Sequence record: PZ445554.1
Reading direction: 5' to 3' (one strand)
Origin: a phage
Length of the DNA stretch: 64,000 bases
In this document: one piece after another, positions 40,049 to 40,507 of the stretch
Layout: every line of letters begins with the position of its first letter
Numbering within the stretch: position 1 is the stretch's first letter
The notes under the pieces: generated by a model
What the model was told of the DNA's origin: nothing
The model's input: only the letters and a program-made list of their open reading frames with translations
Databases searched by the model: none
Position numbers and translations under genes: made by a program

Positions 40049-40507
40049 TTATTTTAAATCGTCTGCCCAATCGAGTTTAAGAGGCTCTTTATATTCACGA
40101 TCTAATACGACCGGAATTTGTACATCACCGCTAAATGATAAGGGTCCAACATTATAAGACAATGTTATATGCGGTGTGTAATCATCAAAATCATGTGTAG
40201 CACCTAGTGCCCGCGCATACATGTGTCGACAGCGCAGATATTCAGAATCTAGCACAAGTACAAGAGTCGATCCATCTTGTGTTTTCCATACTTCTAAATG
40301 CCCAGAAGAAGCTACTTCAAAACTTCCACTCGATGGAACATACGGAACATTTACTCTCGAATAACATATAGTCGAATGAATTTTTTCTCTAGGAACTGGA
40401 TTAGGAACACGTAAAGAGCGCTGAAGTTCTTCCAGCGCATCAAGTGTTAATTCTGAAAACTTAGCTGCTACATAAAGACCCGTTGAAAAGTCTTTAAATT
40501 CCATCAT
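40049..40507 (-). CDS. 57B: 2H-phosphoesterase family protein (gene 57B position; Acb1-like cyclic-nucleotide phosphodiesterase)
   Basis: 152 aa; two H-x-T/S-x motifs (HSTI, HITL) typical of 2H phosphoesterases; immediately upstream of 57A as T4 57B. Confidence 0.7.

Follow-up and report, generated by a model that had tools for sequence, protein, structure and literature searches.

The phage represented here carries, with a probability of about 0.95, the pair of anti-CBASS genes that is known from phage T4. One is acb1 (gene 57B), whose product is predicted to cleave the cyclic oligonucleotide signals of CBASS defence; the other is acb2 (gene vs.4), whose product is predicted to sequester them. 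Both genes lie in the window, i.e. the whole stretch of 64,000 nucleotides that was analysed (sequence record PZ445554.1). A sequence-only reading had suggested from gene position that two anti-CBASS functions might occur together in this phage, and alignments, profile matches and functional residues now support both identifications beyond position alone.

In local BLAST comparisons the window was recognised as a Tequatrovirus (T4-like) segment, colinear with 58-80 kb of the T4 genome (NC_000866), with nucleotide identities to T4 of about 97.8% over window positions 39942-46085 and about 97.5% over positions 27168-31390. A megablast search of 50,697 phage records showed that, for the acb1 and the acb2 region alike, the matching Tequatrovirus genomes number in the hundreds, with identities of 95-99%. 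For the 22-kb span 24000-46000 the best listed records reached 96-97% identity with a coverage of 94-97%. Since no listed record exceeded this identity, the phage is, judged on its nucleotide sequence, a mosaic T4-like phage that differs from every listed record over this span.

The order of genes around both loci is that of T4. On the minus strand, 57A, gene 1 (dNMP kinase), gene 3 and gene 2 lie 5' of 57B, which follows 57A directly, and the proposed 57B location was borne out; vs.4 is flanked by vs.5 and vs.3. The junctions are also those of T4 (ATGA for 57A/57B and TAATG for vs.4/vs.3), and each gene is part of a densely arranged operon on the minus strand. A chance origin of either open reading frame is rejected, because their products score 202.7 bits (E = 2.7e-60) against Pfam PF23474 (Anti-CBASS protein Acb1) and 71 bits (E = 9.4e-20) against PF24729 (Acb2_Tad1_hairpin), where the Pfam cut-off is 27 bits for both families. 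The features discussed in the text are listed in Table 1.

Table 1. Positions of the two anti-CBASS genes, their motifs and neighbouring features in the window.
Feature	Position	Strand	Basis or remark
acb1 (gene 57B), 152-aa 2H phosphoesterase predicted to cleave CBASS cyclic oligonucleotides	40049..40507	-	ATG start; identity to T4 NP_049750.1, Pfam, PDB
Acb1 catalytic motif 1, H44-S45-T46	40370..40378	-	translates to HST; H44 and T46 belong to the tetrad (PMC9117128)
Acb1 catalytic motif 2, H113-I114-T115	40163..40171	-	translates to HIT; H113 and T115 belong to the tetrad (PMC9117128)
acb2 (gene vs.4), 88-aa helical-hairpin protein, putative hexameric cyclic-dinucleotide sponge	29534..29800	-	T4 NP_049728.1, PDB 7uq2, Pfam, PHROG
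acb2 codons 44-52 (FDSCEDDEL), hairpin-tip patch	29645..29671	-	site of four of the five changes relative to T4 (L44F, N46S, C50D, F52L)
gene 57A (tail-fibre chaperone)	40504..40734	-	TGA stop overlaps acb1 ATG (4-nt ATGA), as in T4
vs.5, 73 aa	29793-30014		full-length match to PHROG 1986; stop overlaps acb2 ATG by 8 nt
T2 ip5-like internal protein	39719-39976	-	MKTFKEFATK..., PHROG 3499, 98.8% identical to T2 ip5
internal-protein gene	39409-39642	-	MKTYQEFIAE..., PHROG 8111
184-aa ORF replacing T4 segB homing-endonuclease gene	36837-37391	-	PHROG 5032; weak endonuclease/homing-endonuclease PHROG matches
two small ORFs, 57 aa (PHROG 3452) and Cys-rich 70 aa (PHROG 2306)	26796-27178		96-99% identical to T2_114 and T2_115

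The vs.4 product as Acb2

The open reading frame listed at 29534-29836 begins at an upstream TTG and would encode 100 aa. Its assignment to the vs.4 slot by gene order was correct as regards the location between vs.5 and vs.3, but the start has to be moved. Translation begins at ATG 29800, 36 nt inside the listed start, because the resulting 88 aa equal both the annotated length of T4 Vs.4 and the crystallised construct (residues 1-88), because a GAGG lies 8 nt 5' of this ATG, and because a 5' extension to TTG 29836 would run into vs.5. The 100-aa TTG-initiated form was rejected on the same three points.

The 88-aa product is identical to T4 Vs.4 (NP_049728.1) at 83 of 88 residues (94%), and the identification of the second gene as vs.4/acb2, proposed earlier from its position, is thereby confirmed at the level of similarity. 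The protein matched the Vs.4 chain of PDB 7UQ2 with E = 3.6e-53 and PHROG 717 with E = 5.6e-32, the latter being the family from which Jenson et al. collected Vs.4 homologues (PMC10097602). T4 Vs.4 has been described as a hexamer with three bound cGAMP molecules and a Kd of about 30 nM (Jenson et al. 2023, Nature 616:326, PMC10097602); for T4 Acb2 and 3'3'-cGAMP a Kd of about 84 nM has also been given (Cao et al. 2023, PMC10312549). In the T4 protein Y8 and F82 stack on the ligand, Y8, H11, K23 and R79 make polar contacts and S74 is near the ligand, while the hexamer interface is formed by L29, F33, A66, A73 and A77, with T12 as helix cap (PMC10097602). All six cGAMP-contact residues (Y8, H11, K23, S74, R79 and F82) are kept in the window protein; the five interface residues and T12 are as in T4, and the positions from the screen of Jenson et al. 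(T12, L60, S74 and A77) are unchanged. This comparison of residues could have failed, because T2 Vs.4 is without Y8. By analogy with its 94%-identical T4 counterpart, the window Vs.4 is probably a hexameric sponge that binds cyclic dinucleotides at nanomolar affinity.

Homologues of Vs.4 occur in 1,232 phage records, and an allele at least 99% identical to that of the window is present in 60 records. The exact allele is already present in Bas43 (TadeuszReichstein) and slur08. Bas38 Acb2 is known to activate the Panoptes system (PMC12657218), and we considered whether the window allele was the one assayed from Bas38 (AugustSocin); this was rejected, as the identical allele belongs to Bas43. For this reason our search of the literature yielded no published assay of the D13/F44/S46/D50/L52 allele.

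The five differences from T4 Vs.4 (E13D, L44F, N46S, C50D and F52L) are all at non-contact positions, and four of them are clustered at the hairpin tip. We aligned 14 Vs.4 homologues with 52-99% identity from Tequatrovirus, Mosigvirus, Gaprivervirus, Jiaodavirus and Slopekvirus, together with one Phapecoctavirus record. In this alignment residues 1-36 and 66-88 are near-invariant and every ligand-contact residue is invariant, whereas residues 37-65, the hairpin tip, are hypervariable across the Straboviridae, length included. At position 50 the Tequatroviruses have C, D, F, Y or L, and position 13 toggles between D and E among the homologues. That the cluster at the tip reflects diversifying selection, either for escape from recognition of the sponge protein by a host factor or for retuning of its ligand spectrum, is very unlikely in our estimate. 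If it were true, the allele would differ from the T4 protein in its effect on some defence system. Selection of this kind, with an effect on function, is a possibility that the evidence does not require, and it is the sole residual novelty of the locus.

A related alternative is that the substitutions at positions 44-52 retune the sponge itself, e.g. towards added binding of cyclic trinucleotides or towards other dinucleotides than those bound by T4 Acb2. Ligand spectra do differ among Acb2 homologues, and the helices around the cA3 pocket of PaMx33 Acb2 fall within the variable segment 37-65 (PMC10312549). However, T4 Acb2 does not bind cA3, and Y37, A57, L60, D61 and T64, which Cao et al. 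proposed as the cyclic-trinucleotide block of the T4 protein (PMC10312549), are all unchanged in the window. The single change D61R in T4 Acb2 did not restore binding (PMC10312549), so that the block is more likely due to the geometry of the helices than to individual side chains. Retuning by the tip substitutions is therefore given little credence here. The PaMx33/JBD67 type, with its second pocket, is defined by residues equivalent to R67 and T74 and by a helix whose kink widens the pocket, and was compared here by residues: the window protein has D61 in the place of PaMx33 R67 and keeps Y37, A57, L60 and T64, the residues that would clash. Because the trinucleotide-blocking residues are those of T4, the window Acb2 is expected to belong with the dinucleotide-only T4 type.

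Another possibility is that the window allele is weakened or lost and that the phage relies on Acb1 alone. Natural loss alleles are known, as in T2, where the N-terminus of Vs.4 is rearranged and Y8 is missing (see also PMC12657218), and Panoptes systems in hosts select against functional Acb2 (PMC12657218). The vs.4 gene also diverges more from T4 (92.9% nucleotide identity) than the surrounding DNA (about 97.5%). Against this, the reading frame is of full length with every mutagenesis-supported residue intact, the amino acid changes fall in a segment that varies freely among homologues, and the codon changes relative to T4 are 11 synonymous against 5 non-synonymous. The same allele is moreover maintained in many independent isolates. 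We consider a loss of function highly improbable and retain the reading of vs.4 as an intact acb2 gene.

The 57B product as Acb1

The window 57B product is identical to T4 gp57B/Acb1 (NP_049750.1) at 152 of 152 residues (100%), which agrees with the earlier description of an Acb1-like phosphoesterase. At the DNA level there are six nucleotide differences from T4, and all six are synonymous. The PF23474 profile is covered over its full length (positions 1-144 of 144, protein residues 9-150). A 2H phosphoesterase fold is predicted from the sequence match to the Acb1 structure 7t26 in the PDB, over residues 9-149 with E = 4.2e-62 and 96 identities among 142 aligned residues (68%). The paired H-x-T/S motifs that had been noticed in the 152-aa protein were found as HST at residues 44-46 and HIT at residues 113-115.

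The active site of T4 Acb1 consists of the tetrad H44, T46, H113 and T115, with base stacking by Y12, W74, F107 and W147, and the H44A/H113A protein is catalytically dead (Hobbs et al. 2022, Nature 605:522, PMC9117128). Because the window protein is T4 gp57B residue for residue, neither catalytic histidine, H44 or H113, is lost. All four stacking aromatics are present, as is the C-terminal lid (residues 145-152), the C-terminus being identical to that of T4. The sequences being identical, the properties published for T4 Acb1 should transfer directly to the window protein. Homologues of Acb1 were found in 1,472 phage records.

The 57B gene is labelled 'RNA ligase' in the RefSeq records of T4 and T2 and in PHROG 755, and the 2H fold is common to LigT-type enzymes, from which one could argue that the product is an RNA ligase or a LigT-like RNA 2',3'-cyclic phosphodiesterase acting on RNA ends and not an anti-defence nuclease. 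This is scarcely credible, given that the best Pfam model for the protein is Acb1 itself, that activity-guided fractionation for 3'3'-cGAMP degradation led to the T4 protein, which is identical in sequence, that cGAMP cleavage is gone from lysates of T4 delta-acb1, and that plating of this mutant drops more than 300-fold and is impaired only on CBASS-positive hosts (PMC9117128). The name 'RNA ligase' was rejected on this published biochemistry as a misnomer transferred by homology and based on the fold.

Operon context and neighbouring variable loci

Consensus scans around acb1 and acb2 gave 12 sigma-70 promoter matches against 14.1 expected from shuffled sequence, and 17 intrinsic-terminator matches against 17.4 expected. 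Because neither scan did better than shuffled sequence, it is from the conserved operon context that we infer expression of both genes. No feature of the sequence speaks against their function. Just 5' of the acb1 start, gp57A is 76 aa long as against 80 aa; an in-frame 12-nt deletion between GATGAAG repeats takes out AKDE near the C-terminus.

The vs.5 gene, upstream of acb2, is intact in the window. The T4 reference Vs.5 (58 aa; L001 5382-5558) matches the window protein in two frames, first over aa 1-17 and then over aa 14-73. Because the match is split across two frames, the T4 reference vs.5 looks like a frameshifted derivative.

Several other loci differ from T4. Positions 39388-39976, which correspond to the T4 ipI slot beside acb1, are occupied by two unlike genes for small internal proteins, both with N-termini of the capsid-targeting kind. 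For T4 IPI, which inhibits GmrSD-type restriction, this slot of the window offers no counterpart. At positions 31390-32300 the window has e, denV, one 157-aa internal-protein gene (100% identical to T2 ipIV) and vs.8, whereas the order in T4 is e, ipIII, ipII, denV, vs.8. The denV gene is about 78-79% identical to that of T4 compared to about 97% in the flanks, and this drop in identity suggests a cassette swap. The tRNA cluster at 36837-38367 comprises 10 genes (Arg-tct, Asn, Tyr, Met/Ile-cat, Thr, Ser, Pro, Gly, Leu and Gln) against 8 in T4. The two small ORFs in Table 1 lie between tk.2 and tk.3 and are absent from T4.

Proposed action of the pair and comparison with known systems

The two proteins are predicted to disarm CBASS signals in different ways. 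Acb1 would bind the 3'-5'-linked cyclic di- and trinucleotide signals of the host (3'3'-cGAMP, cUA, cAAA and cAAG) as a metal-independent 2H phosphoesterase and strain the ring, which would bring a 2'-OH to attack the neighbouring phosphate at the H44/T46/H113/T115 tetrad. Linearisation would proceed via a 2',3'-cyclic phosphate intermediate, and the CBASS effector would stay off. The 2'-5' bond of 3'2'-cGAMP resists Acb1 (PMC9117128). The 88-aa helical hairpins of Acb2 would assemble into a hexamer with three pockets at the dimer interfaces, in each of which a single cyclic dinucleotide would be clamped by Y8 and F82 and contacted by H11, K23 and R79; for T4 Vs.4 the Kd is about 30-80 nM. Sequestration in place of destruction would let cover reach ligands that Acb1 leaves uncut (e.g. 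3'2'-cGAMP and cUU/cUG). Sequence identity, synteny and the retention of functional residues are direct results of the present comparison. These activities, and protection in vivo, are expected because they have been published for T4 proteins that are identical (Acb1) or 94% identical (Acb2) to those of the window.

The combination of Acb1 and Acb2 is already known as the published state of T4 (PMC10312549, PMC12657218), which encodes both and hence is broadly evasive (Cao et al., PMC10312549). The main value of the present analysis is a correct annotation under the proper names Acb1 and Acb2. Almost every public T-even record still has acb1 as 'RNA ligase' or 'hypothetical protein' and acb2 as 'hypothetical protein'. 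With both genes intact, the phage would be expected to resist most cyclic di- and trinucleotide CBASS types. The Panoptes decoy system requires Acb2 for its activation, and Acb2 suffices for it, in both cases through nucleotide binding; a phage with Acb2 would be expected to be detectable by Panoptes-type systems (PMC12657218). These expectations are relevant to host-range prediction and to the choice of therapeutic phages.

Compared with T4, the acb1 locus has the same protein, the same position downstream of 57A, the same ATGA overlap, and the same tetrad and stacking residues; it differs in what lies downstream, which is ipI in T4 but a T2-type ip5 and another internal-protein gene in the window. 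Acb1 of Erwinia phage FBB1 (PDB 7T26/7T27) is of the same family, with the HxT/HxT tetrad and the aromatic clamp conserved, but it belongs to another phage lineage and served as a structural template only. T4 Vs.4/Acb2 (PDB 7UQ2) shares the 88-aa length, the vs.5-vs.3 locus, and the contact and interface residues, and differs at five residues. The T4 reference vs.5 is shorter and apparently frameshifted, and leaves a gap of 36 nt where the vs.5 stop of the window overlaps the vs.4 start. The Vs.4 proteins of Bas43 (QXV84963.1) and slur08 are 100% identical to that of the window, and their records say 'hypothetical protein'.

T2 offers a contrast. Its Acb1 equals that of the window at every aligned residue, although its gene as annotated lacks one N-terminal codon. 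Its Vs.4 (YP_010073770.1) lies at the same locus and equals the T4 allele from residue 9 onward, but the altered N-terminus (MKILRD, with a four-residue gap; NC_054931; L003 10591-10851) drops the cGAMP-stacking Y8. The T2 Vs.4 is likely a binding-site loss allele, and T2 Acb2 has been reported to carry a probable binding-site mutation (PMC12657218). T2 is probably a natural T-even case in which the nuclease arm is kept alone. The variable cassettes of the window are otherwise T2-like (ipIV, ip5 and T2_114/115), yet its Vs.4 keeps the T4-type N-terminus.
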